Positions 4,186 to 52,460 of a stretch of 64,000 nucleotides of DNA are shown piece after piece. Numbering within the stretch: the stretch's first letter is position 1; each line of letters begins with the position of its first letter. The stretch comes from a bacterium (GTDB lineage Bacteria; SAR324; JACQKK01). The notes beneath the pieces are model-generated. The model did not search any database. It saw only the letters and a list, made by a program, of their open reading frames with translations, and was not told the DNA's origin. The stretch covers positions 502,681 through 566,680 of the forward strand of contig OZ251219.1 of NCBI GenBank assembly GCA_965240465.1, written 5' to 3'. Made by a program: the position numbers and the translations under genes.

Positions 4186-4446
4186 GGTGTTTTTTGGCAG
4201 TGTCCTCTTGGCAGCGTTCTTTTGATGGTGTTCTCTCGGCAGTGTTCCCTCGGCAGTGTCCTCTTGGCAGTGTTTTTTTGATGGTGTTCTCTCAGCAGTG
4301 TTCTTTTGGCAGTGTTCTTTTGGCAGTGTTCTTTTGGCAGTGTCCTCTTGACAGCGTTATCTCGGCAGCGTTCTCTCAGCAGTGTCCTCTCGGCAGCGTT
4401 CTCTTGACAGCGTTCGCAGTGTCCTCTTGGCAGCGTTTTCTCGGAT
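4186..4446. repeat. 14-bp tandem repeat array (about 18 imperfect copies, consensus GGCAGTGTTCTTTT) filling the flhF-flhG spacer
   Basis: Direct reading shows ggcagtgttctttt repeated with variants such as ggcagtgtcctctt and ggcagcgttctctc. The 84-aa ORF at 4194..4448 is a repeat artefact. Confidence 0.9.
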
Positions 4447-4486: not shown

Positions 4487-5980
4487 TCAAGCTTCGCTGG
4501 AGATTTGAAGTAGTAAGTCAATCAATCTTTCTGGGGTAGCTATTTCCATATCTTCGGGTACTCGCTGACCGGTGGTCAGGTAGTTAATGGGCAGTTTGAA
4601 ACGAATAAAGTGATTAAACAGTGAGCCGCAATGCATACATTCATCCAATTTGGTGAACAAGACCGATTTTAGAGGCAGGCAACCAAATTTGCGGGTAGTA
4701 TCAATGAGTTCGGCATCTTTGGTGGTAGCACTGAGTACCAGACAGATGTCCAGCTGGGGATTATTTTGGAACATTCCCTTTAGTTCTTTCATCTGGGGGA
4801 GATCACTTTGCGAGCGACCTGCGGTATCAACCAGTACCACATCGTAGCTTTGGAACTCTTCCAGAGCTCGGTGTAAATCAGTGCGATCTCTCACCACCGA
4901 TAATGGCAGATTCATTATCTTGGCATAGGCTTTTAACTGCTCTAAGGCTCCTATCCTGAAGGTGTCCACCGTTATCAAAGCCGTCTTACGCTTATAGCGT
5001 AGCACTTGCTCGCTCGCTAGCTTAGCCACCGTGGTCGTTTTTCCCACCCCCGTACAACCCACCAACACCAACACCTTCTCACCCGATAAACCACCAGTGG
5101 TCTTCACTAAACTAGTTAACATCCGTGCCAAAAAAATCTTTACATAAGTGAAATCTTCTCGCTTTTCAGGCGGTAATCGTTTGGCAGCCTGCTCTACCAA
5201 ACGCTTAGCAAATTTCTCCTCCAAACCATGAACCACCAAATGCTGCTGCAAACCCATTAAGGTCTCTGGTAAATCCAAACCCACCTTCAAACCCCCTCCC
5301 TGCAACGCTTGCACTGCCTGCCGCATATCTGTTAACTCATGGTGCAACTGACGCATTGCATGACCTCCCAGTCCCTCCTCCTCCTTCACCACTTTTAGCA
5401 ACTGCTTCAACTGATGAACTTCACTACATAAACCTCGCAAAACCGAATCCCGCTCCGCCATGCCTGACCGAACAACTTGATCACTAACTTCTACCACCCT
5501 CGCTGACCCCCCTCCATCTCCCCTTCCTCCAAACGAAGTACCCCCACTTGACCCCTCCTGACCTGCCCCCTCCTGACCTGCCCCCTCCTGACCTGCCCCC
5601 TCCTGACCTGCCCCCTCCTGACCTGACCCCTCGCCAGACGCTCCCCCACCTGCTCTCCCATTTGCTCCCTCGCCAGATGCTCCCCCACCTGCTCTCCCAT
5701 TTGCCCCCTCAACCACTCCCTCCTTTTCCTTCGCCGCACTCCCCTCTGCCAATCCTACTGCCTCCCTCTCCATATCAAAACGACCAACCCCCCTCGACTC
5801 ACCAACACCCCCTTCTTCAGGCCTCACCGCAGCTACCTCCCATAACTGACGCCTCAAAAACGGAATCCCCACTCTCCGCAACTGACGAGTAGATAAAATC
5901 AGGGCATCCCCACCCAAATCCTGACGGGTTTTTTGCAGGGCTTCCCGCATGTCAGCCCCTCGATAGTGCTTCACACCCAT
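4487..5980 (-). CDS. flhF: Flagellar biosynthesis SRP-type GTPase FlhF with a repeat-encoded low-complexity insert
   Basis: G1 is GCTGVGKTTTVAKLA, G3 is DTAGR and G4 is TKLDE. The N-terminal half carries (GQEGA)x5 and a duplicated GANGRAGGGASGE segment, encoded by 15-nt and 39-nt tandem repeats at about 5550-5712. Confidence 0.85.
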   Translation of the reverse strand: MGVKHYRGADMREALQKTRQDLGGDALILSTRQLRRVGIPFLRRQLWEVAAVRPEEGGVGESRGVGRFDMEREAVGLAEGSAAKEKEGVVEGANGRAGGGASGEGANGRAGGGASGEGSGQEGAGQEGAGQEGAGQEGAGQEGSSGGTSFGGRGDGGGSARVVEVSDQVVRSGMAERDSVLRGLCSEVHQLKQLLKVVKEEEGLGGHAMRQLHHELTDMRQAVQALQGGGLKVGLDLPETLMGLQQHLVVHGLEEKFAKRLVEQAAKRLPPEKREDFTYVKIFLARMLTSLVKTTGGLSGEKVLVLVGCTGVGKTTTVAKLASEQVLRYKRKTALITVDTFRIGALEQLKAYAKIMNLPLSVVRDRTDLHRALEEFQSYDVVLVDTAGRSQSDLPQMKELKGMFQNNPQLDICLVLSATTKDAELIDTTRKFGCLPLKSVLFTKLDECMHCGSLFNHFIRFKLPINYLTTGQRVPEDMEIATPERLIDLLLQISSEA

Positions 5981-6984: not shown

Positions 6985-7218
6985 TAAATGGCATTGCTTA
7001 CGACACTGCTTATGCGACAAATGGCATTGCTTACGACACTGCTTATGCGACAAATGACATTGCTTACGACACTGCTTATGCGACAAATGGCACTGCTTAC
7101 GACACTGCCTATGCGACAAATGACATTGCTTACGACACTGCCTATGCGACAAATGACATTGCTTACGACACTGCCTATGCGACAAATGGCATTGCTTACG
7201 ACACTGCCTATGCGATGA
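6985..7218. repeat. 33-bp tandem repeat, about 7 copies (AATGGCATTGCTTACGACACTGCTTATGCGACA)
   Basis: The period was verified from coordinates. Four overlapping ORFs on both strands (6963..7289 region) are generated purely by the repeat. Confidence 0.9.
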
Positions 7219-7375
7219 CATTGCTTATGGCACTGCTTATGCATAAAAGATTGACAGAGTTTCTCATAACGTCCTTAGTTTTGGATTGATTAGATGCTCT
7301 TCTTTTATCAGCGGGAGGTTGTTTGTCTTCCGTCGCATGCAGCGAACATGTGGCACGAAGCCATAAGGAGATAAC

Positions 7376-8780: not shown

Positions 8781-8889
8781 GGGGGGCTAAAAAGCAGGTG
8801 ACCAAAAGTCAGGGGCTAAAAAGCGGGTGACCAAAAAGCAGGTGACCAAAAAGCAGGGGACTAAAAAGCAGGGGGCTAAAAAGCAGGTC
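8781..8889. repeat. About 15-16-bp tandem repeat (AAAAAGCAGGTGACC-like), about 7 copies, between ddl and the PBP gene
   Basis: Read directly from the sequence. Confidence 0.85.
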
Positions 8890-10998: not shown

Positions 10999-11025
10999 CC
11001 GCTCTCCCTATCTCCAACCCTAATG

Positions 11026-11148
11026 CCTTCATAACTACCAATACCCTCATAACTACCAACGCCCTCATAACTACCAACGCCCTCATAACTACCAACGCCC
11101 TCATAACTACCAACGCCCTCATAACTACCAACGCCCTCATCAATTAAT
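11026..11148. repeat. 18-bp tandem repeat (CCTCATAACTACCAACGC), about 6.5 copies, immediately upstream of the PBP start
   Basis: Read directly. It generates the spurious 60-aa ORF 10983..11165 ((EGVGSY)n). Confidence 0.9.
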
Positions 11149-21464: not shown

Positions 21465-23393
21465 TTGGGGGAATGGTCGGGGGAGAAGATTTTTTTAGCG
21501 ATGGCGATGGTGCCGTTTTTTCTTGTAGGAGATAATTTAGCTATGGTTGGAAAAGTACCTGTTGATAGGCATGAGCCCAAGTTTTCACGTGAGCGAGTGG
21601 GTAGTTTGAATGAGGGGGAGAGGGAGGAAGCCATTTCAGAGTTGATGGGAGCTGAGACGGAATCCCATGGGGATGTCGTGCGTCAGATGGTAGCAGAGGG
21701 GAAGCAGCGGGGTTCTATCACTTTGGAAGAAATAAATGAGTGTCTGACTTATGAAAAAGATACTGATAAGAAGGCCTCTGCAGAGCTATTGGAAGATTTA
21801 TTGGTATTTTTTCAAGATATGAAGATAGAGGTGCTAGATAATGGTAAAGCCTTGGACTTAGCACAGCATCGCGGAGAACAATCATCCAAAAATAGCTACA
21901 ATATGGAGCCCTCGGTTGATATTCGTACTGATGACCCCGTACGCATGTATTTGCGTGAGATGGGACACATCAAGTTATTATCTCGTGCCGAGGAGGTGGA
22001 GATATCCAAACGGATAGAAGATGGGCAACGCAAGATGATAGAGGTTTTGGCTCGTTCTCCCTTAGTGGCAGAGCATTTATTGGAATTGCGTGAAAAACTT
22101 TATGATAAGCGGATCAAATCTCAAGAGCTTATTTCTGGGATGGATGAAGATGATAATGTGATTGAAGAAGATGGGATCTTCGCCGAAAAACTGCTGATAG
22201 TCCTAGATTCCATATATAAAAAACGCCGAGAGATCGCCAAGCTTCTGGCTAAAGATTTAACCAAGAATACCGAATCCAAGATCATCAAGACTCGTCAGAC
22301 TTTGTCTTTTATCATAGAAGGCATTAATTTCAACTCTCGGCAGGTGGGTACCATGTGCGAAGTGATGCTCCAACATCGCAATAAAATATACCGAGCCTCT
22401 AGCCAACTTGAATCTCTCCAGCAAAATCTGGGCAAACTAACAGATAAACAAAAAAACCTCCTTAATAAATGGCAGAGTGATTCTCTTAAATACGCCAAAC
22501 TAGAAACAGAAATTGAAAAACTCTGTGGCAAAAGCCCACGAATCATCAGACGACTGATGGAAAAAATGTTCATCACCGATACCAGAATCAAACGCCTTAT
22601 AACTCAAGCCGAAGCCACTAGAGAAGAATTCCAAACGGAAATCGGACTCCTAGTAGCATCTGAACGCAAGGTTAAAAAAGCCAAAACTCAACTCACTCAA
22701 GCCAACCTCAGATTGGTTATCAGCATTGCCAAAAAATACGCCAACCGAGGACTACAATTCCTAGACCTAATCCAAGAAGGTAATATCGGGCTCATGAAAG
22801 CCGTAGATAAATTTGAATACCGACGCGGCTATAAATTCTCTACCTATGCTACTTGGTGGATCCGACAAGCAATCACTCGGGCCATCGCCGACCAAGGACG
22901 AACCATTCGGGTGCCAGTCCACATGATCGAAACCATGAATAAATTATTACGCACTTCACGACAACTAGTACAAGAACTCGGCAGAGAACCCTACCCTGAG
23001 GAAATCGCTAAAGAAGTGAACCTGCCCTTGGAAAAAGTACGCAAAGTATTCCAAATCGCCAAAGAACCAACCTCGCTGGAAACACCCATCGGCGAAGAAG
23101 AAGACTCCCACTTAGGCGACTTCATCCCCGATCCCAACGCTCAAATGCCCGAAGACCTCGCCCTTACCCAAAACCTCCGTGAAAATACACGCGAAGCACT
23201 GGATAAACTAACCGAACGAGAAGGTAAAGTCCTCGCAATGCGTTTCGGAATCGGAAAACAACGCGATCACACCCTAGAAGAAATCGGACAAGATTTTGAC
23301 GTCACCAGAGAGCGTATCCGACAAATTGAAGCCAAAGCACTACGCAAACTGCGTCATCCCGTACGCTCTAAGCACTTGCGTACCTTCTTTTAG
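21465..23393 (+). CDS. rpoD: RNA polymerase sigma-70 factor RpoD
   Basis: Region 1.2 is [11 protein letters not shown]. Region 2 is [12 protein letters not shown]...[44 protein letters not shown]. Region 4 is [30 protein letters not shown]. The true start is probably the internal Met at 21645 (MGAETESH..). Confidence 0.9.
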
Positions 23394-23648
23394 CTCGCTC
23401 AATCGGATCACTCATAGCTCGCTCAATCGGATCACTCAATTAGCTCGCTCAATTAGCTCGCTCAATCGGATCACTCATAGCTCGCTCAATCGGATCACTC
23501 AATTAGCTCGCTCAATTAGCTCGCTCAATCGGATCACTCATAGCTCGCTCAATCGGATCACTCAATTAGCTCGCTCAATTAGCTCGCTCAATTAGCTCGC
23601 TCAATTAGCTCGCTCAATTAGCTCGCTCAATCGGATCACTCAATTAGA
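23391..23648. repeat. Composite tandem array: a 63-bp higher-order unit x3 built from TAGCTCGCTCAAT(CGGATCACTCA), then a 13-bp unit x5
   Basis: Read directly. The rpoD TAG stop codon (23391-23393) is the first triplet of the array. Confidence 0.9.
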
Positions 23649-25962: not shown

Positions 25963-27906
25963 ATGAAATCATCACTGCAGAAATCACTGCAGAAATCACT
26001 GCAAAAGTCACTGCAAAAATCATCACTGCAAAAATTATCGCTCCTCTCAGCTTGCATCTTCGCTCTTTTCTTAGCCAGCTGTGGCGGGAACGGTGGAGGT
26101 GGTGGCGGGAACGGTGGAGGTGGTGGCGGGAACGGTGGTGGCGGGAACGGCGGAGGAGGCGGAGGTGTCAAACCTCTCGATACCGATTCTGATGGCATCC
26201 CTGACGATGTAGACCCCGATGACGACAATGACGGTAAAAACGACCCTGATGATCTCTGTGCCAAAGGCGACCTAAACTGGCTCAGCTCCCCCTCCACCGA
26301 TTACGATGACGACGGCTGCCAAGATTCAAGCGAAGACCCCGATGACGACAATGACAACAAAATCGACCCTTATGATCAATGTGCCAAAGGCGAGAAAGGC
26401 TGGCTCAGCTCCGTCAACACCGATGAGGATGGAGACGGCTGCCAAGATTCAGGCGAAGATGTTGATGATGATAACGACGGTCTAATAGAAATTGCCAATG
26501 CTGACCAACTAAACAACATCCGCCATGAGCTGGACGGCTCCCGCTATGATGATGAAATGGCTGACACCGATACTGGTGATAGAGGCTCCTACATAGGCTG
26601 TTTTGGTGACATCACCACCATAGGCTGCAGTGGCTATGAACTGGTTAATGACATTGTATTAAACGACCCAGACCCTGCTGACACTGGTAACTTTCAACCC
26701 ATTACAGGAGATTTTACCGCTATCTTAGATGGTAATAACTTTGCCATCCATAACTTAATCATTATCACCGACGCTAGCACCAAACACACAGCCTTCTTTA
26801 CATCCTTAGCCGCTGGTAGCCAAGTCAAAAACTTGTCCTTTACCAAAAGTGCAACCGACACAGGCTCAGTTACCAATAACTTCACTGGCACTAAGAGCAA
26901 TGTAGGGATTCTAGCAGGCTCTAATAGTGGAACAATATCCAATGTTTCTGTGGATCTATTATCGGTTTCTTCTACTGCTGCTAATTCTAGGGTCGGTGGC
27001 TTGGTAGGTCTTAATGCTAGTGGGGGGATTATCCAAAATAGCTCTGCCACTGGCAATGTTGCTGTCAGTGTTACTGCCATTGCTGGTACTAATAGAAATT
27101 TGGGTGGCTTGGTAGGTCTTAATGCTCAGGCGATTATCCAAAATAGCTCTGCCACTGGTGATGTTGACGGCGGGACTAGAGCTGACTTTATAGGTGGCTT
27201 GGTAGGTCGGAATTATGGGACGGTCCGAAATAGCTATGCCACTGGTGATGTTGACGGCGGGACTGGTGGTGACATTGTGGGCGGCTTGGTAGGTCGGAAT
27301 CGTGGGGTGGTCCAAAATAGCTATGCCACTGGTAATGTTGAAGACAGGGCTGGTACTAACCATATGGGCGGCTTGGTAGGTCAGAATTATGAGATGATCC
27401 AAAATAGCTATTCCTTAGGCAATGTTACGGGGCATGTAACAAGCAGTAATTTTGGTGGCTGGTACACAAGTAGTATTGGCCACTTGGTTGGGTACAGAAC
27501 TACCGGAACACCCTTGTTTAGGTCCAAAACTAGCGAAACAATTACCAGCAGCTATTATAATAATGAGAGTACTGCTACTAATGGTATTCTATTAGATGTT
27601 GGAATAGGCTTAAGCAAATCCCAGCTGCAAGCTATCAACCATACTCTCCCCACTCTGGAGAGTGATTGCTCTATGGCTGGGGGAACTTGGGCTCCCCCTG
27701 GCGATGCCAACGGTACATGCACTGGCGGATATTTAGCTGGTTGGAATCCCCTTAACTGGCAGTTCACCGCTGGTTTCTACCCCACTCTCAAATCCTATAA
27801 AGAAGGCACTGATACTAGCGGCAACCTAATCCAAATTGAAGACGATCTGCTCTGTGGGCAACTCAGCCAATTTCAACAAGCAGACGCTTTCGTTCAGTGT
27901 CCGTAG
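25963..27906 (+). CDS. Secreted lipoprotein with thrombospondin-type-3-like Ca-binding repeats and GLUG-motif repeats
   Basis: Lipobox LFLASCGG. D.D.DG..D..D repeats (DTDSDGIPDDVDPDDDNDG, three times). Then about 6 repeats of GGLVG.N...I.NS.ATG.V (GLUG). The N-terminus has (KSLQ)n and (GGNGGGG)n from 12- and 21-nt repeats. Confidence 0.7.
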   Translation: MKSSLQKSLQKSLQKSLQKSSLQKLSLLSACIFALFLASCGGNGGGGGGNGGGGGGNGGGGNGGGGGGVKPLDTDSDGIPDDVDPDDDNDGKNDPDDLCAKGDLNWLSSPSTDYDDDGCQDSSEDPDDDNDNKIDPYDQCAKGEKGWLSSVNTDEDGDGCQDSGEDVDDDNDGLIEIANADQLNNIRHELDGSRYDDEMADTDTGDRGSYIGCFGDITTIGCSGYELVNDIVLNDPDPADTGNFQPITGDFTAILDGNNFAIHNLIIITDASTKHTAFFTSLAAGSQVKNLSFTKSATDTGSVTNNFTGTKSNVGILAGSNSGTISNVSVDLLSVSSTAANSRVGGLVGLNASGGIIQNSSATGNVAVSVTAIAGTNRNLGGLVGLNAQAIIQNSSATGDVDGGTRADFIGGLVGRNYGTVRNSYATGDVDGGTGGDIVGGLVGRNRGVVQNSYATGNVEDRAGTNHMGGLVGQNYEMIQNSYSLGNVTGHVTSSNFGGWYTSSIGHLVGYRTTGTPLFRSKTSETITSSYYNNESTATNGILLDVGIGLSKSQLQAINHTLPTLESDCSMAGGTWAPPGDANGTCTGGYLAGWNPLNWQFTAGFYPTLKSYKEGTDTSGNLIQIEDDLLCGQLSQFQQADAFVQCP

Positions 27907-31779: not shown

Positions 31780-33804
31780 ATGACCTTTCTTCCTACTTCT
31801 CTTAATGTTTCTGCATCTCAGTTACGCAAGGCGGCGAATGCCTTGCGTTTTTTGGCTATGGATGCGGTACAAAAGGCTAATTCGGGTCATCCTGGGATGC
31901 CGATGGGCATGGCAGATATTGCCACCGTCTTATGGGGTGGATTTTTGCGACACAATCCTACTAATCCAGCTTGGTTTGATCGGGATCGTTTTGTCCTATC
32001 CAATGGGCATGGTTGTATGCTGCTTTATGGGCTTTTGCATTTGAGTGGTTATGATCTACCATTGGAGGCCCTACAGCAATTTCGTCAATGGGGCAGTCAA
32101 ACGCCCGGTCACCCTGAATACGGGCATACTCCGGGGGTGGAAGTGACTACCGGTCCCCTAGGGCAAGGGATTGCCAATGCAGTGGGTTTTGCGTTGGCAG
32201 AGCGATGGCTAGCACAACGTTTTAATCGTGATGCTCATGAGATAATAAACCACCGTACCTATGTGTTTTTGGGGGATGGCTGCCTGATGGAAGGTCTTAG
32301 TCATGAGGCTTGCAGTCTGGCAGGTCACCTAAAACTAGGACGTCTAATCGCCCTTTATGATGATAATCACATCAGCATTGATGGTCCCACTGAGCTATCC
32401 TTTAGCGAGAACGTTCCTCAGCGATTTAGCAGCTATGGCTGGAAAACCCAACAATTAGATGGTCATGACCCAGTTGCCATAAAAGCTGCTCTGGAGAATG
32501 CTCAGCGAGATCAATCTGCTCCTCATTTGCTGTGCTGCAAAACCACCATCGGCTGGGGAGCACCGAGCAAAGCTGGGCAAGCTTCCACCCATGGTTCACC
32601 GCTGGGTGATGAAGAAATTGCGGCTACCCGCCAAAAGCTGAATTGGCATCACCCCCCATTTGAACTGCCCCCTGAGGTAAAGGAATTCTGGCAGGTTTCC
32701 CTGAAAAAAGGTCAACAACTAGAAGCTGACTGGAACCAACAATTGAGTGCTTATCAACAACAATTTCCCTCAGAAGCAACCGAACTCAAACGTATTATTA
32801 AAGGGAAACCCTCTCAACAATGGCAACAACCCCTAGAAAACCTACTGCTGCAATGGAAAACTCAACCCCCAGCAGAAAATGCCACCCGAGCTCATTCAGG
32901 AGCAGTACTAAACACCATCGTCCCTTGCCATACCGACCTACTAGGAGGTTCTGCCGACCTCACTCCCTCCAATAACACCCGCACCAACCACCACACCGAC
33001 ATCTCCCCACTACAATGGCAGGGAAATTATATCCGCTATGGCGTAAGAGAACACGCCATGGGTGCCATAATGAACGGATTGGCTCGCCATGGAGGTTGTC
33101 TGCCCTATGGGGCTACCTTCCTTACCTTCTCCGACTACATGCGTCCCGCCATTAGAATGGCAGCTATAATGAAAATCCAAGTAATCTATGTCTTCACTCA
33201 TGACAGCATCGGACTAGGAGAAGACGGACCCACCCACCAACCTATAGAACATCTAGCCAGCTTGAGAGCTATCCCCAACCTTAGAGTACTCAGACCCGCA
33301 GATGCCCGCGAAACCGCCCAATGTTGGCAATTAGCCCTCCAATACCAAGGACCCTCACTACTGGCTCTCAGCAGACAAAAAATCCCTCACCTGCCCGGCT
33401 CCCAACAATATCTCTGTCATCAGGGTGCTTATATCATCTCCTCTAGCAAACAAACACCCAAAGCAATACTGATGGCTAGTGGAACAGAGGTGCAAATCGC
33501 CATCCAAGCCCAAACCCTCCTGGAACAACAAAACATCCCTACCAGAGTGATCAGCATGCCCTGCTGGGAACTCCTTACCACTCAGCATCATTCTTTGCTA
33601 TCACTTCCCGAGCCAGTCGTTAAACTAGCCATAGAAGCCGCCAGCCCATTTGGTTGGCATCAGTGGCTCGGAGAACAGGGCATCGCCCTGGGGATGCAAT
33701 CCTTTGGAGCTTCCGCCCCAGCCGATAAACTATATACCCAGTTTAATCTCACCCCCCAGGCAATCGTAAAAGAAGTCCAAACTCGCTGCAAACTAAACAC
33801 TTAA
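31780..33804 (+). CDS. tkt: Transketolase
   Basis: ANALRFLAMDAVQKANSGHPGMPMGMADIA, GHG.MLLY, GPLGQG, FLGDGCLMEG and THDSIGLGEDGPTHQP are present. Confidence 0.95.
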   Translation: MTFLPTSLNVSASQLRKAANALRFLAMDAVQKANSGHPGMPMGMADIATVLWGGFLRHNPTNPAWFDRDRFVLSNGHGCMLLYGLLHLSGYDLPLEALQQFRQWGSQTPGHPEYGHTPGVEVTTGPLGQGIANAVGFALAERWLAQRFNRDAHEIINHRTYVFLGDGCLMEGLSHEACSLAGHLKLGRLIALYDDNHISIDGPTELSFSENVPQRFSSYGWKTQQLDGHDPVAIKAALENAQRDQSAPHLLCCKTTIGWGAPSKAGQASTHGSPLGDEEIAATRQKLNWHHPPFELPPEVKEFWQVSLKKGQQLEADWNQQLSAYQQQFPSEATELKRIIKGKPSQQWQQPLENLLLQWKTQPPAENATRAHSGAVLNTIVPCHTDLLGGSADLTPSNNTRTNHHTDISPLQWQGNYIRYGVREHAMGAIMNGLARHGGCLPYGATFLTFSDYMRPAIRMAAIMKIQVIYVFTHDSIGLGEDGPTHQPIEHLASLRAIPNLRVLRPADARETAQCWQLALQYQGPSLLALSRQKIPHLPGSQQYLCHQGAYIISSSKQTPKAILMASGTEVQIAIQAQTLLEQQNIPTRVISMPCWELLTTQHHSLLSLPEPVVKLAIEAASPFGWHQWLGEQGIALGMQSFGASAPADKLYTQFNLTPQAIVKEVQTRCKLNT

Positions 33805-34477
33805 TGGCTAAATCTATCATGACTGTTATCATCGCCCCCTCCATTCTATCTGCCGATTTTGGTCGCCTCAATGAAGAGCTGGCTGCCCTGCAATCCTTTG
33901 GAGCTTCCGCCCCAGCCGATAAACTATATACCCAGTTTAATCTCACCCCCCAGGCAATCGTAAAAGAAGTCCAAACTCGCTGCAAACTAAACACTTAATG
34001 GCTAAATCTATCATGACTGTTATCATCGCCCCCTCCATTCTATCTGCCGATTTTGGTCGCCTCAATGAAGAGCTGGCTGCCCTGCAATCCTTTGGAGCTT
34101 CCGCCCCAGCCGATAAACTATATACCCAGTTTAATCTCACCCCCCAGGCAATCGTAAAAGAAGTCCAAACTCGCTGCAAACTAAACACTTAATGGCTAAA
34201 TCTATCATGACTGTTATCATCGCCCCCTCCATTCTATCTGCCGATTTTGGTCGCCTCAATGAAGAGCTGGCTGCCCTGCAATCCTTTGGAGCTTCCGCCC
34301 CAGCCGATAAACTATATACCCAGTTTAATCTCACCCCCCAGGCAATCGTAAAAGAAGTCCAAACTCGCTGCAAACTAAACACTTAATGGCTAAATCTATC
34401 ATGACTGTTATCATCGCCCCCTCCATTCTATCTGCCGATTTTGGTCGCCTCAATGAAGAGCTGGCTGCCCTGCAATC
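33695..34477. repeat. Perfect 194-bp tandem amplification (4 periods) spanning the tkt 3' end and rpe 5' end
   Basis: TGCAATC recurs at 33695, 33889, 34083, 34277 and 34471. Three identical 64-aa chimeric ORFs (33804, 33998, 34192) and identical antisense ORFs confirm that the copies are identical. Confidence 0.95.
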
Positions 34478-35078
34478 GGCTGGGGCAGATTGGCTACACT
34501 TGGATGTCATGGACGGGCATTTCGTCCCCAACCTAACCTTCGGACCTCCGCTGGTGCAAAAACTAAAAAAACCACCCCAGTCCTTCTTTGACGTCCACTT
34601 GATGGTCGCTGAACCCCAACTCTGGGTTGAAGCTTTCGCCCAAGCAGGAGCAGACCGCCTTACCATTCATGCCGAGGCTTCCGTTCATCTAGAAAAACAC
34701 CTGTCTTTGATCAATGAATATGGCATCTCCGCAGGCATTGCCCTCAACCCAGCCACTCCCATAGAAGTACTTAAGCACATCCTGCCAACAGTAGATCTGA
34801 TTCTTTTAATGACCGTTAACCCAGGCTTTGCAGGACAAAAATATCTGCCCTCAGTAACTCCAAAAATCAAGTCCTGTGCTGATTGGCTAACCCAAATAAA
34901 CCAAAAAAAATATCTTCAGGTGGATGGAGGAATCACCCCTGAAACCATCATCGCAGCCGCCCAAGCGGGTGCCAATTCCTTTGTAGCAGGAAGTGCCATC
35001 TTGGGAAACCAGAATTATCAGGAACAAATATCGGCTCTGAGAACACAAGCTCAAAAGGCAACCCTGCCTTCTTCTTAA
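34386..35078 (+). CDS. rpe: Ribulose-phosphate 3-epimerase
   Basis: IAPSILSADF, LHLDVMDGHFVPN, DVHLMV, MTVNPGFAGQ and VDGGI are present. Confidence 0.95.
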   Translation: MAKSIMTVIIAPSILSADFGRLNEELAALQSAGADWLHLDVMDGHFVPNLTFGPPLVQKLKKPPQSFFDVHLMVAEPQLWVEAFAQAGADRLTIHAEASVHLEKHLSLINEYGISAGIALNPATPIEVLKHILPTVDLILLMTVNPGFAGQKYLPSVTPKIKSCADWLTQINQKKYLQVDGGITPETIIAAAQAGANSFVAGSAILGNQNYQEQISALRTQAQKATLPSS

Positions 35079-36816: not shown

Positions 36817-38790
<1,974 letters not shown>

Positions 38791-42351: not shown

Positions 42352-42458
42352 ATTCCACCGTCATTTATTTTGCCACCGTCATTTATCTTGCCACCCCCCC
42401 CCCCCAGCCCCTCAGCCTCCCAGCCCCTCAGTCTCCCAGCCCCCTTCCCTCGCTAAAC

Positions 42459-45284
42459 ATGAATATCTTCCCCAACCAAACCCCGCCTGTTGACCCCATC
42501 AAGTCTGAGACCCTAGTACTCGCTCCACAAGAACTTGCTCCACAAGAGCTCGCTCCAAAAAACACTCCGCCAGAGACTGCGGCTCCCGTGATGTTCATCA
42601 TAGACACCATGGCGATTCTCTATCGTTCCCACTTTGCCATGCTAAAGAATCCCCTCATCAATTCCAGCGGAATGAACACCAGTGGCATTTTTGGTCTTAC
42701 CAAGATGCTGTTACGTATTATTCAGCACCAAAATCCCTCCTTTCTAGCCATCACCTCCGATGCCCCTCCGCCTACTTTTCGTCATCTTCGTTACCCCGAT
42801 TACAAAGCCACCCGAGAAAAAATCCCTACCGAACTGGCAGAACAACTACCCTATATCCCCCGCTTAGTAGAAGCCTTGGGATTGCCCTTTTTCATCCTAA
42901 AAGGCTGGGAAGCCGATGACCTGATTGGCACTCTGGCTAAGCGGGCTCAGAGCCAGAGCATCACCAGTGTTATTGTCAGCGGGGACAAAGACCTACTACA
43001 GCTGCTTAGTTCCCACACCCTATTATTCAATCCCAAGGACTCTCAAACCGAAGGCGAAGAAGCTGCTTTCCAGCGTTTTGGTTGTCCTCCTTGCCAAGTG
43101 ACCCAAGTGTTGGGCTTGATGGGAGACACATCTGATAATATCCCTGGAGTACCTGGCATCGGAGTCAAAACGGCTGCCAAGCTGATAAATCAATTTCAGA
43201 GCTTAGAAAACCTCTACCAAAACCTGAATGAACTGCCGACTAGCAAATTGAAAGAGCGTCTGATTGCCCATCAAGAGCAAGCTTTTTTGTCTAGAGAACT
43301 AGCCACCATTAAAACCGATGCCCCCCTGGAAATTGATTGGGAAGCCCTGCGTTTTAAGCCTCAGCGACTTAAGGAAAATCCTCAGTGGCTGGAATTATTG
43401 CAGGAACTAAACTTTAATTCCCTTCACAATCTATGGTCTCAGGCTGAAGGACTCGGTAAGAACCAAATCCCAGCTACTGAATCCACTGACAAGGAAAAAA
43501 TCCACCCCTACATTTTCAAATCTCTGGCAGCTTTTCAAGCCCAAGCTGAGCGTTGGAAGCAAGCTCCTCTATTAGCATTCAGCACCAAAACCACTTCTCC
43601 TGATTGGCAAACCAGCTCACTATCGGGGATCTCCTTTTGCGTTGATGACCAACACAGCTATTATTTGCCTTTTGACCAAGCTCGCATTAAGGCTCAGCAG
43701 CAACCAATCTGGATGGTGCTAAAAAACCTGCTGGAAGATGAAAAACTCCCCAAGGCAGCCCACGACCTTAAACACGAAATGCAGACACTCTTAGGCATTG
43801 AACTAAAAGGGGCCTGCTCGGATACCATGATCGCCTCCCATCTAAATTCCCCCACCGAACGAGATCACGACCTAGGACACCTCGCCCTGAGAGAACTAAA
43901 CCGAGTCCCATCCTCTAATAACCCCGAATTACCACTAGATGTACCCATTACTCAAGCAGCCTCAATGGCAGCTGAGAATGTCCAAGACATCTTTCAATTG
44001 GTTAAATGTTTTGCTCCTCGCTTGAAAAAAAGCGGTCAATTACCTCTGTTTGAAAAGCTGGAAGTTCCCTTGACCAAGGTGCTGATGAAAATGGAACGAG
44101 TAGGAATCCGCTTTGATAGTGAAGGATGCCAAAAATTACACGCTGAGATAACTCAAAAATTGGAGCAACTAAAGCAACGTATCTATGAACTGGCAAATCA
44201 AAAAGAATTTAATCTGAATTCGGTGTCCTCCTTGCAACAGGTACTTTATGAAAACCTACGCCTGCACGAAAAACTAGGCGTACGCCCGCGACGCATTAAA
44301 CTGGGTATGGGACTCTCCACCGATGAGGAAACTTTGGAAAGCATGCGTTCTCATCCGCTGCCTGAGGCACTCTTAAAATGGAGGGAATTTAATAAATTGA
44401 GATCTACCTATCTGGAACAACTAAGCTCATTTGTTAATCCTAAAACCAATCACATCCACACCCACTTCCGCCAAACAGTGGCTGCTACCGGTAGGCTGGC
44501 CTCGGATAAACCTAATCTGCAAAACATCCCCATCCGCAGCGAAGAAGGACGTAAACTGCGAACCCTATTTCTACCCTCTTCTCCTCAGCATGTCCTGTTC
44601 TCTGCCGACTACAGCCAAATAGAACTCCGAGTACTCGCACACTACTCCCAAGACCCAACCTTCATCAAAGCCTTTCAACAAGAAGAAGATATACACATGC
44701 TCACCGCTATGACCCTCTTTGATATTCCCAAAGAACAAATCACCAGAACTAAACGCTCCATTGCCAAAGAAGTTAACTTCGGACTCATCTACCGCATGGG
44801 ACCCGATAAACTCGCACAAGTCACCCAAACTAATCGCGAACAAGCTAAACAATTCATCCAACGCTTCTTTCAACGATACCAAACCATCCGACAACTTCAA
44901 GATGACCTCATCGCCAAAGCCCGAAAAGAAGGCTATGCCCAAACCCAGCTCGGTAGAAAAAGACCCCTCCCCGAACTCCAACAATCTCAAACCCTCGCTT
45001 CCCGAAATGCTGAAGGAGCTGCCATCAATACTCCCATCCAAGGCACCGCCGCAGAAATTATCAAATGTGCCATGCTTAAGGTCAGCCAACGCCTCCAAAA
45101 AGAAAACCTCCAAACCAATATGCTGCTTAGCATCCACGATGAACTCCTGTTTGATGCCCCCAAACAAGAACTAAATCACCTTAAAATACTGGTCAAAGAA
45201 GAAATGGAAAATGCCATGCAACTAAAAATACCCCTGAAAATAGAATCTGGACATGGCCCTAACTGGCTAGCCGCCCATCCCTAG
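42459..45284 (+). CDS. polA: DNA polymerase I
   Basis: The 5' nuclease is ...DGNSL-type (IIDTMAILYRSHFA, GWEADDLIGTLA, GDKDLLQL, GD.SDNIPGVPGIGVKTA). Pol motif A is DYSQIELRVLAH and motif B is RSIAKEVNFGLIYRMG. HDEL is also present. The likely start is the Met at 42591, because the upstream part is the (LAPQE)n repeat. Confidence 0.95.
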   Translation: MNIFPNQTPPVDPIKSETLVLAPQELAPQELAPKNTPPETAAPVMFIIDTMAILYRSHFAMLKNPLINSSGMNTSGIFGLTKMLLRIIQHQNPSFLAITSDAPPPTFRHLRYPDYKATREKIPTELAEQLPYIPRLVEALGLPFFILKGWEADDLIGTLAKRAQSQSITSVIVSGDKDLLQLLSSHTLLFNPKDSQTEGEEAAFQRFGCPPCQVTQVLGLMGDTSDNIPGVPGIGVKTAAKLINQFQSLENLYQNLNELPTSKLKERLIAHQEQAFLSRELATIKTDAPLEIDWEALRFKPQRLKENPQWLELLQELNFNSLHNLWSQAEGLGKNQIPATESTDKEKIHPYIFKSLAAFQAQAERWKQAPLLAFSTKTTSPDWQTSSLSGISFCVDDQHSYYLPFDQARIKAQQQPIWMVLKNLLEDEKLPKAAHDLKHEMQTLLGIELKGACSDTMIASHLNSPTERDHDLGHLALRELNRVPSSNNPELPLDVPITQAASMAAENVQDIFQLVKCFAPRLKKSGQLPLFEKLEVPLTKVLMKMERVGIRFDSEGCQKLHAEITQKLEQLKQRIYELANQKEFNLNSVSSLQQVLYENLRLHEKLGVRPRRIKLGMGLSTDEETLESMRSHPLPEALLKWREFNKLRSTYLEQLSSFVNPKTNHIHTHFRQTVAATGRLASDKPNLQNIPIRSEEGRKLRTLFLPSSPQHVLFSADYSQIELRVLAHYSQDPTFIKAFQQEEDIHMLTAMTLFDIPKEQITRTKRSIAKEVNFGLIYRMGPDKLAQVTQTNREQAKQFIQRFFQRYQTIRQLQDDLIAKARKEGYAQTQLGRKRPLPELQQSQTLASRNAEGAAINTPIQGTAAEIIKCAMLKVSQRLQKENLQTNMLLSIHDELLFDAPKQELNHLKILVKEEMENAMQLKIPLKIESGHGPNWLAAHP

Positions 45285-45331
45285 CCGCCCATCCCTAGCC
45301 GCCCATCCCTAGCCGCCCATCCCTAGCCGCC
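45267..45331. repeat. 14-bp tandem repeat (CTAGCCGCCCATCC) x4.6 between convergent polA and the lptE-like gene
   Basis: Both the polA TAG (45282-84) and the minus-strand TAG (45323-25) lie in the palindromic CTAG of the unit. Confidence 0.9.
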
Positions 45332-45868
45332 ATTGTTAAGCAGTTGGGTTTTTACTTGGGTTGCAAACCGAAGCAGGGTTTGATCTAGAGCTCGGTCGGT
45401 GAGTACGGGATCTTCCAGCCTCTCATCGGGAATGGTTATGGTGTATTGGGTTTTGATTATTTTTGGTCCCCAGAATGGTTTCCTATCGGTGGTTTTGTGA
45501 AGGGTGATTTGTCCTTGGAGGTCGTAGTTAAGCTGTCGGAAGGTTTTTGCTGAGGAGCTTTCTGCTGAGGAGCTTTCTGCTAAGAAGCTTTTTGCTAAGG
45601 AGTGTGAACGGGAGACGCTATTGAGGGTGATATAAAGTATCACCTGACTGTTGGAAGATTTTACCAGTTGGAGGGTATGGTGCTGTGCAAATTGATTTCT
45701 TAGGTGTTGGCGCAAACGGGTATCCAGTTCGGGGATGCTTGTTTGGTTTTGTACGGGGGCGATCCAGAGTCGGTTTGTGCCTTCGGGCAGGGACAAAGAG
45801 ACGGAACGGTAAGCACACCCAGTTGCAAGCAGGGCGAAGCAGAAACAAAGAGATAGACAGACCTTCAC
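45323..45868 (-). CDS. Outer-membrane lipoprotein, LptE-like
   Basis: A GTG start gives MKVCLSLCFCFALLATGC (lipobox LATGC). Size and the GC-AYR...P pattern are reminiscent of LptE/RlpB. There is an internal (AESSS)n repeat. The longer ORF to 45940 runs into the 83-bp repeat. Confidence 0.45.
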   Translation of the reverse strand: MKVCLSLCFCFALLATGCAYRSVSLSLPEGTNRLWIAPVQNQTSIPELDTRLRQHLRNQFAQHHTLQLVKSSNSQVILYITLNSVSRSHSLAKSFLAESSSAESSSAKTFRQLNYDLQGQITLHKTTDRKPFWGPKIIKTQYTITIPDERLEDPVLTDRALDQTLLRFATQVKTQLLNNGG

Positions 45869-45869
45869 A

Positions 45870-46175
45870 TGTACTGGGCTGTTTTCATTCAAAGAGATGG
45901 GCTGGGACAGAGCCTCAATTTGCAACCGTTCAAGCCTCACACGGATCCAACACGTACTGGGCTGTTTTCATTCAAAGAGATGGGCTGGGACAGAGCCTCA
46001 ATTTGCAACCGTTCAAGCCTCACACGGATCCAACACGTACTGGGCTGTTTTCATTCAAAGAGATGAGCTGGGACAGAGCCTCAATTTGCAACCGTTCAAG
46101 CCTCACACGGATCCAACACGTACTGGGCTGTTTTCATTCAAAGAGATGAGCTGGGACGGAGCCTCAACATGACTG
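45870..46175. repeat. 83-bp tandem repeat, about 3.7 copies, abutting the lptE-like start
   Basis: GTACTGG recurs at 45871, 45954, 46037 and 46120. Copies differ by 1-3 substitutions. Confidence 0.95.
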
Positions 46176-52310: not shown

Positions 52311-52345
52311 TAATTACCTCATAATAACTAGTCCCGACCCAAAAC

Positions 52346-52460
52346 TCACCTGCCTACCTTCTCACCTGCCTCTGCTACTTACCTGCCTCTGCTACTTACC
52401 TGCCTCTGCTACTTACCTGCCTACCTTCTCACCTACCTACCTTCTCACCTGCTTGCCACC
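52346..52460. repeat. 17-bp tandem repeat (ACCTGCCTCTGCTACTT) x3 flanked by related CACCTGCCTACCTTCT units
   Basis: Read directly. It is intergenic. Confidence 0.85.

Follow-up and report, generated by a model that had tools for sequence, protein, structure and literature searches.

How did a gene boundary come to stand in four identical copies between two intact genes, and do these copies serve any purpose there? The locus that raises this question lies between the transketolase gene (tkt) and the ribulose-phosphate 3-epimerase gene (rpe) of an uncultivated SAR324-related bacterium, within a 64,000-nucleotide stretch of contig OZ251219.1 that was analyzed as a whole and is referred to below as the window. 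We find that the array is real in the assembly, that it was rightly interpreted in the original prediction, and that it is mechanistically ordinary.

The array extends from 33695 to 34477 on the forward strand. TRF describes it as a head-to-tail array with a period of 194, 4.0 copies, 100% matches, 0 indels and a score of 1566. An exact test found the base at position i to equal the base at position i+194 at every i from 33695 to 34283, which amounts to 589 (3 x 194 + 7) positions. The 783 bp so occupied are made up of four 194-bp units and a terminal 7-nt partial copy, with no sequence between copies. Copy 1 (33695..33888) holds the native tkt end and the first rpe start. Copies 2 (33889..34082) and 3 (34083..34276) are identical to it, as is copy 4 (34277..34470), in which the rpe start runs on into the intact rpe gene. 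All four units are string-identical, with zero differences across 776 nt.

Each unit is bounded by the heptamer TGCAATC, which begins at 33695, 33889, 34083 and 34277 and occurs a fifth time at 34471..34477. The microhomology is therefore present in n+1 copies, five for four units. One heptamer site falls within the last 110 nt of tkt (GGGGA-TGCAATC-CTTTGG) and the other within codons 29-31 of rpe (GCCC-TGCAATC-GGCTGG), and the two are read in the same codon phase, xTG CAA TCx. The computed probability that a junction shows an identity of at least 7 nt by chance is about 6e-5; in the tkt-rpe region reconstructed as single-copy, 163 pairs of direct 7-mers are spaced 20-500 nt apart. Within the window, a 27-mer spanning the new junction from rpe into tkt is confined to three exact occurrences in the array, with 0 expected in shuffled sequences. 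The unit comprises 107 nt of tkt coding sequence with the stop codon (110 nt) and the first 92 nt of rpe, and alignments with orthologous loci show base-for-base homology to their tkt ends and rpe starts.

These results bear on most of the original prediction. The claim of a perfect fourfold array of a 194-bp unit was borne out by sequence reading, TRF and the exact test, and the 7-nt microhomology was found in both of the flanking contexts that had been described. Alignment to single-copy orthologous junctions confirms the proposed origin of the unit from the 3' end of tkt and the 5' end of rpe. One count was corrected: the rpe portion had been given as 93 nt and is actually 92, as the third base of codon 31 differs (TCC versus TCG). 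The event had also been called recent, and we support this view because the copies show zero differences over their whole length.

Both flanking genes are intact. The tkt gene (31780..33804, forward strand) encodes 674 aa and has its last 107 coding nt and stop codon in copy 1. Its product is matched at full length by the Pfam domains Transketolase_N, Transket_pyr and Transketolase_C_1, and is 75% identical to its closest homologues over 99% of its length. The rpe gene (34386..35078, forward strand) encodes 230 aa and is matched over positions 2-197 of the 198 in Pfam Ribul_P_3_epim. Between them lie three identical chimeric ORFs of 64 aa on the same strand, at 33804..33998, 33998..34192 and 34192..34386, the last with a stop codon that overlaps the ATG of rpe. 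Protein and DNA alignments identify the product as an in-frame fusion of Rpe residues 1-31 with residues 642-674 of Tkt, the last 33 of that protein. The fusion is in frame because the codon phase of the heptamer matches in tkt and rpe, an outcome with a chance of 1 in 3. For the same reason, every mini-ORF ends at the same TAATG stop/start overlap as the tkt end and rpe start; this overlap stands at 33802-33806, where the tkt stop meets the start of ORF 1, and again at the end of every unit. Three identical chimeric ORFs between an intact tkt and an intact final rpe had been predicted, and the ORF list, the in-frame junction and the full-length Pfam matches confirm each part of this. The chimera has no Pfam match, and its 90%-identity cluster has a single member, with no close relative recorded. 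As a predicted protein it is present on one public contig only, the same contig that carries the tkt and rpe of this sequence.

The rpe start keeps at least 110 nt of identical sequence upstream and 92 nt downstream. Two statements about its translation had been made. The first was that the mini-ORFs inherit the ribosome-binding context of rpe. Identical local sequence is indeed inherited, but no Shine-Dalgarno motif was found upstream of rpe. Few of 35 ORF starts in the window have a Shine-Dalgarno-like motif at -5 to -15, an approximate result for which longest-ORF starts were used, and the organism seems to rely little on initiation led by such motifs. Since they are rare in the window and absent before rpe, nothing specific is lost at the rpe start. 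The second statement was that tkt and rpe were ancestrally coupled in translation through TAATG. This is plausible, and the -1 nt TAATG spacing is among the motifs enriched in coupled gene pairs (PMC12548453); however, the two closest relatives have gaps of 20 and 63 nt between the genes, and the first residue of their Rpe proteins aligns with Met6 of the window protein. An alternative ATG at 34401 (Met6), 14 nt past the stop codon, matches the N-termini of the relatives. Because the relatives' Rpe begin at this aligned position, the true rpe start may be ATG 34401 rather than the ATG that overlaps the tkt stop.

The ancestral arrangement was judged from four related contigs (L081, L082, L086 and L093), each of which has one tkt-rpe junction. 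The two closest, L081 and L082, have the gap lengths just given and show the gene order of the window, in which nadC, nadA and a conserved 83-aa gene are encoded on the strand opposite to tkt and rpe. The Tkt of the window is 100% identical to one predicted protein on record. The Tkt proteins of L081 and L082 are 75% and 74% identical to it; MAG proteins from SAR324 and Lambdaproteobacteria come next, at about 60%. The more distant L086 and L093 were found via the 83-aa gene, and in both tkt and rpe are adjacent and single. Because all four related contigs with tkt-rpe carry a single junction, the array is judged to be derived and specific to this genome. When species-representative genomes were scanned with Rpe, a second genome of the species was not found among the matches listed, in which the rpe genes were at most 53% identical. 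Nor did the JGI metagenomes contain a match to a 33-mer taken from the unit.

In L082, the 74%-identical relative, the tkt stop codon lies inside a tandem repeat of its own (5550-5580, 13 nt x 2.4). In this relative, too, the boundary of the two genes has a repeat, and an independent one.

Microhomology-mediated tandem duplication (MTD) is an established mutation class in which the homologies are 4-25 nt long and 3-500 nt apart; it has been characterized genome-wide in S. pombe and occurs at a lower rate in E. coli (PMC8639346). Like an MTD, the array consists of a head-to-tail segment bounded by a short direct repeat, here of 7 nt with a spacing of 194 nt. The copies follow one another without a gap, the bounding repeats number n+1, and the ancestral state is single-copy, so that the array agrees with MTD on every point that can be tested. 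It differs in that there are four copies instead of two, in the consensus of an environmental genome, and in that the segment spans a gene boundary rather than lying within one gene. Members of the class are expected to be reversible and subclonal. Amplification from microhomology junctions is also known in E. coli, for example lac amplification (PMC1428787). The array resembles such gene duplication-amplification in that a short homology would serve for an illegitimate first join, after which homology would drive expansion and contraction of the array. Classical amplicons, in contrast, are at least 7-40 kb long, contain whole genes and are selected for dosage, while the present unit measures 194 bp.

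We therefore consider that the array is probably a real and very young tandem duplication without a dedicated function, which arose by microhomology and was then expanded. The 7-nt repeat bounds the unit as expected of the route that had been predicted, namely microhomology-mediated duplication followed by expansion. In the first step, template switching, slipped misalignment or illegitimate exchange between the TGCAATC heptamers 194 nt apart would have duplicated the tkt/rpe gene boundary. The resulting 194-bp direct repeat could then have grown to four copies via slippage or unequal sister-chromosome recombination. The array is tolerated, with tkt intact in the first copy and rpe intact in the last; its persistence can be attributed to duplication endpoints that lie in two adjacent genes and so leave both intact. 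Each inserted unit forms a relay ORF of 64 aa with the native tkt stop / rpe start geometry at its end, and the local context in which rpe is translated would presumably still be the ancestral one. In E. coli, direct repeats about 200 bp long are quickly lost. For four copies to be fixed, the origin of the array must therefore be very recent, or a bottleneck, slow contraction in this organism or some selective benefit must be involved.

The strongest competing explanation, which we nevertheless regard as unlikely, is that assembly or consensus building produced an artefact, or that one copy number stands for a heterogeneous population. The junction could be real in some cells with the four perfect copies made by the assembler, or the majority genome could be single-copy. 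The consensus of a repeat does yield perfectly identical copies, and within a population one would expect arrays of this unit size to vary. A single public contig carries the chimeric ORF together with this tkt and rpe, and no second assembly was found in JGI metagenomes or among the species-representative matches listed. Against this, the junction from rpe into tkt must be present in the reads, since read collapse cannot create a junction. The contig is 1.6 Mb long (1,599,138 bp) and crosses dozens of arrays of up to 300 bp; continuity through many arrays of 250-300 bp implies long reads that were able to span 783 bp. None of 20 ORFs checked against Pfam was frameshifted, and all were full length, in line with an accurate assembly. 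The 7-nt microhomology and the many other perfect multi-copy arrays are what would be expected of real slippage products. An indel-rich assembly was considered and rejected, as three overlapping same-strand ORF pairs that had looked like frameshifts turned out to be distinct genes of full length whose N-termini were over-extended. Heterogeneity is a separate matter from artefact. A bacterial array of 194 bp x 4 should expand and contract readily, and copy-number heterogeneity at the array is likely for this reason.

It is far less probable that the array is a selected functional expansion, whether as a spacer of variable copy number that tunes the ratio of Tkt to Rpe through coupled relay ORFs or as a source of a 64-aa microprotein. 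Such a role would fit the in-frame junction, which remakes the same TAATG overlap at each unit, and the occurrence of the array as the consensus state despite its expected instability. The enrichment of TAATG spacing in coupled pairs would also fit, as would the mycobacterial MIRU units, which carry ORFs coupled to the downstream gene (PMC12548453). However, an in-frame junction arises by chance in one case out of three, and neither the array nor the overlap is present in the relatives, whose Rpe start at Met6. The chimera fuses two fragments of unrelated folds, has no family match and stands alone in its 90%-identity cluster. Zero divergence offers no signal of purifying selection, and many comparable arrays in the same genome occupy plainly non-coding positions.

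The MIRU/VNTR minisatellites of mycobacterial operons offer a structural comparison (summarized in PMC12548453). They also form tandem units between co-oriented genes, and the small ORF of each unit overlaps the stop and start codons of its neighbors, with little disturbance of downstream translation. MIRUs differ in being a dispersed and apparently mobile family of 40-100 bp units with a -4 nt spacing, whereas the 194-bp unit is unique to its locus, derives from the flanking genes and has a -1 nt spacing. The array thus shares the overlapping-ORF unit with MIRUs, and as a repeat confined to one locus it does not form a dispersed family.

Other candidate functions were rejected. A structured RNA, riboswitch, tRNA or attenuator is contradicted by the RNA fold of the unit, which shows no structure beyond that of shuffled sequences (z = +0.82), and by the lack of any Rfam or tRNA match in the window. 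No plus-strand promoter-like or terminator-like site was found in the unit; a lone weak minus-strand match (9/12), repeated with the unit, is at chance level. A dosage amplicon is dismissed because the tkt part of the unit (110 nt) and its rpe part (92 nt) include neither a complete gene nor a plus-strand promoter-like site, and a mobile or dispersed repeat family because the junction occurs at one locus and the units of the 44 arrays in the window are unrelated. These searches suggest that the array shows no sign of function.

We return to the preferred reading, a young duplication without a dedicated function, and to the setting in which it occurred. The window contains 44 merged tandem-repeat arrays, or 0.69 per kb, which cover 7.6% of its bases. 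The control consisted of 80 unrelated bacterial loci (903 kb) taken from the species-representative scan with Rpe, and gave 0.051 arrays per kb and 0.25% of bases. The density in the window is 13 times that of the control, and the 903 kb of control sequence held no near-perfect array with a period of at least 50. Most of the arrays (34 of 44) are intergenic or lie within 100 nt of an ORF end, as compared to 17 +/- 3.3 under random placement. In many of them the copies, 3 to 4.6 in number, are 100% identical; the periods are mostly 10-21 nt. Because the repeat units have no meaningful sequence in common, the arrays are best explained as having arisen locally and not from a mobile family. Among the relatives, L082 is repeat-rich too, and L081 is not. 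The 194-bp array is the largest and youngest of a class that is common in the lineage. This window-wide excess, which the original prediction had missed, makes the tkt-rpe event less singular, and the event would represent one extreme product of a lineage-wide tendency to make or retain repeats at gene ends.

Short-period arrays occupy almost every intergenic gap, for example 4187-4437, 6986-7242, 8782-8888, 11025-11140, 23390-23647, 42355-42444 and 52344-52452. Inclusion of the stop codon that ends the upstream gene is also seen in an array at polA (45267-45331) and in one at the ORF ending at 23393. The polA array is a perfect 14-nt x 4.6 repeat (CTAGCCGCCCATCC) that begins inside the last codons of the gene, and the polA stop codon is the TAG in its second copy. 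Between the stop of a 371-aa gene (46179, minus strand) and an LptE-like lipoprotein gene, which likely starts with a GTG at about 45866, the gap is filled by a longer array at 45867-46167 (83 nt x 3.6, 97-99% identity). Its 83-nt unit resembles the coding sequence at the 3' end of the 371-aa gene weakly, with a score of 24 versus 13.4 +/- 2.2 in shuffles.

Repeats are also found within coding sequence. The CTP synthase ORF (36817-38712, minus strand) encodes 631 aa, and its Pfam domain matches end at residue 527; the C-terminal extension carries degenerate 21-nt (7-codon) repeats at 36920-37120. As this example demonstrates, housekeeping proteins of this genome also grow repeat tails. A 647-aa ORF at 25963-27906 contains Gly-rich 21-nt repeats, a 123-nt x 2 repeat and an 87-nt x 3.2 repeat with a GGLVG-like motif, and is probably a repeat-containing surface protein. 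In a related metagenome locus (L104, Ga0315276_10001179), TRF assigned 1985 bases (16%) to tandem repeats.

A search of the literature on SAR324 and tandem repeats returned nothing useful. The nearest comparison is Portiera aleyrodidarum BT, which likewise has a lineage-specific and mainly intergenic excess of repeats that is absent from a close relative (PMC3673631). Portiera BT is an AT-rich endosymbiont with a 358-kb genome and a spike of 7-bp repeats; it has lost dnaQ, mutL and other genes, and its repeat proliferation has been linked to the loss of replication and repair genes (PMC3673631). The present genome differs in its GC content of 45%, its contig of at least 1.6 Mb and its periods of mostly 10-21 nt. 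A tentative and on balance doubtful hypothesis is that the lineage has slippage-prone or contraction-deficient replication and repair, which would make new intergenic DNA and small ORFs from gene ends. The tkt-rpe array would then be a first step, and the older, degraded arrays with shorter periods would mark later ones. A hint of an origin from a gene end comes from the array with the 83-nt unit (45867-46167), which is weakly similar to the 3' coding end of the neighboring gene.

The tkt-rpe array is a clean natural case of a gene-boundary duplication that added about 600 bp and three chimeric ORFs while sparing both genes. Annotators should be aware that the three 64-aa "genes" are by-products of duplication, and that the locus is likely to vary in copy number between cells. 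The lineage-wide excess of repeats at gene ends is a more unusual lead than the 194-bp array itself. At 13 times the density of the control, it suggests an unusual mutational regime in this uncultivated SAR324-related lineage. If the lineage is truly slippage-prone or contraction-deficient, it would be a free-living counterpart of Portiera BT and would let the birth of intergenic sequence and chimeric ORFs be watched in a natural system.
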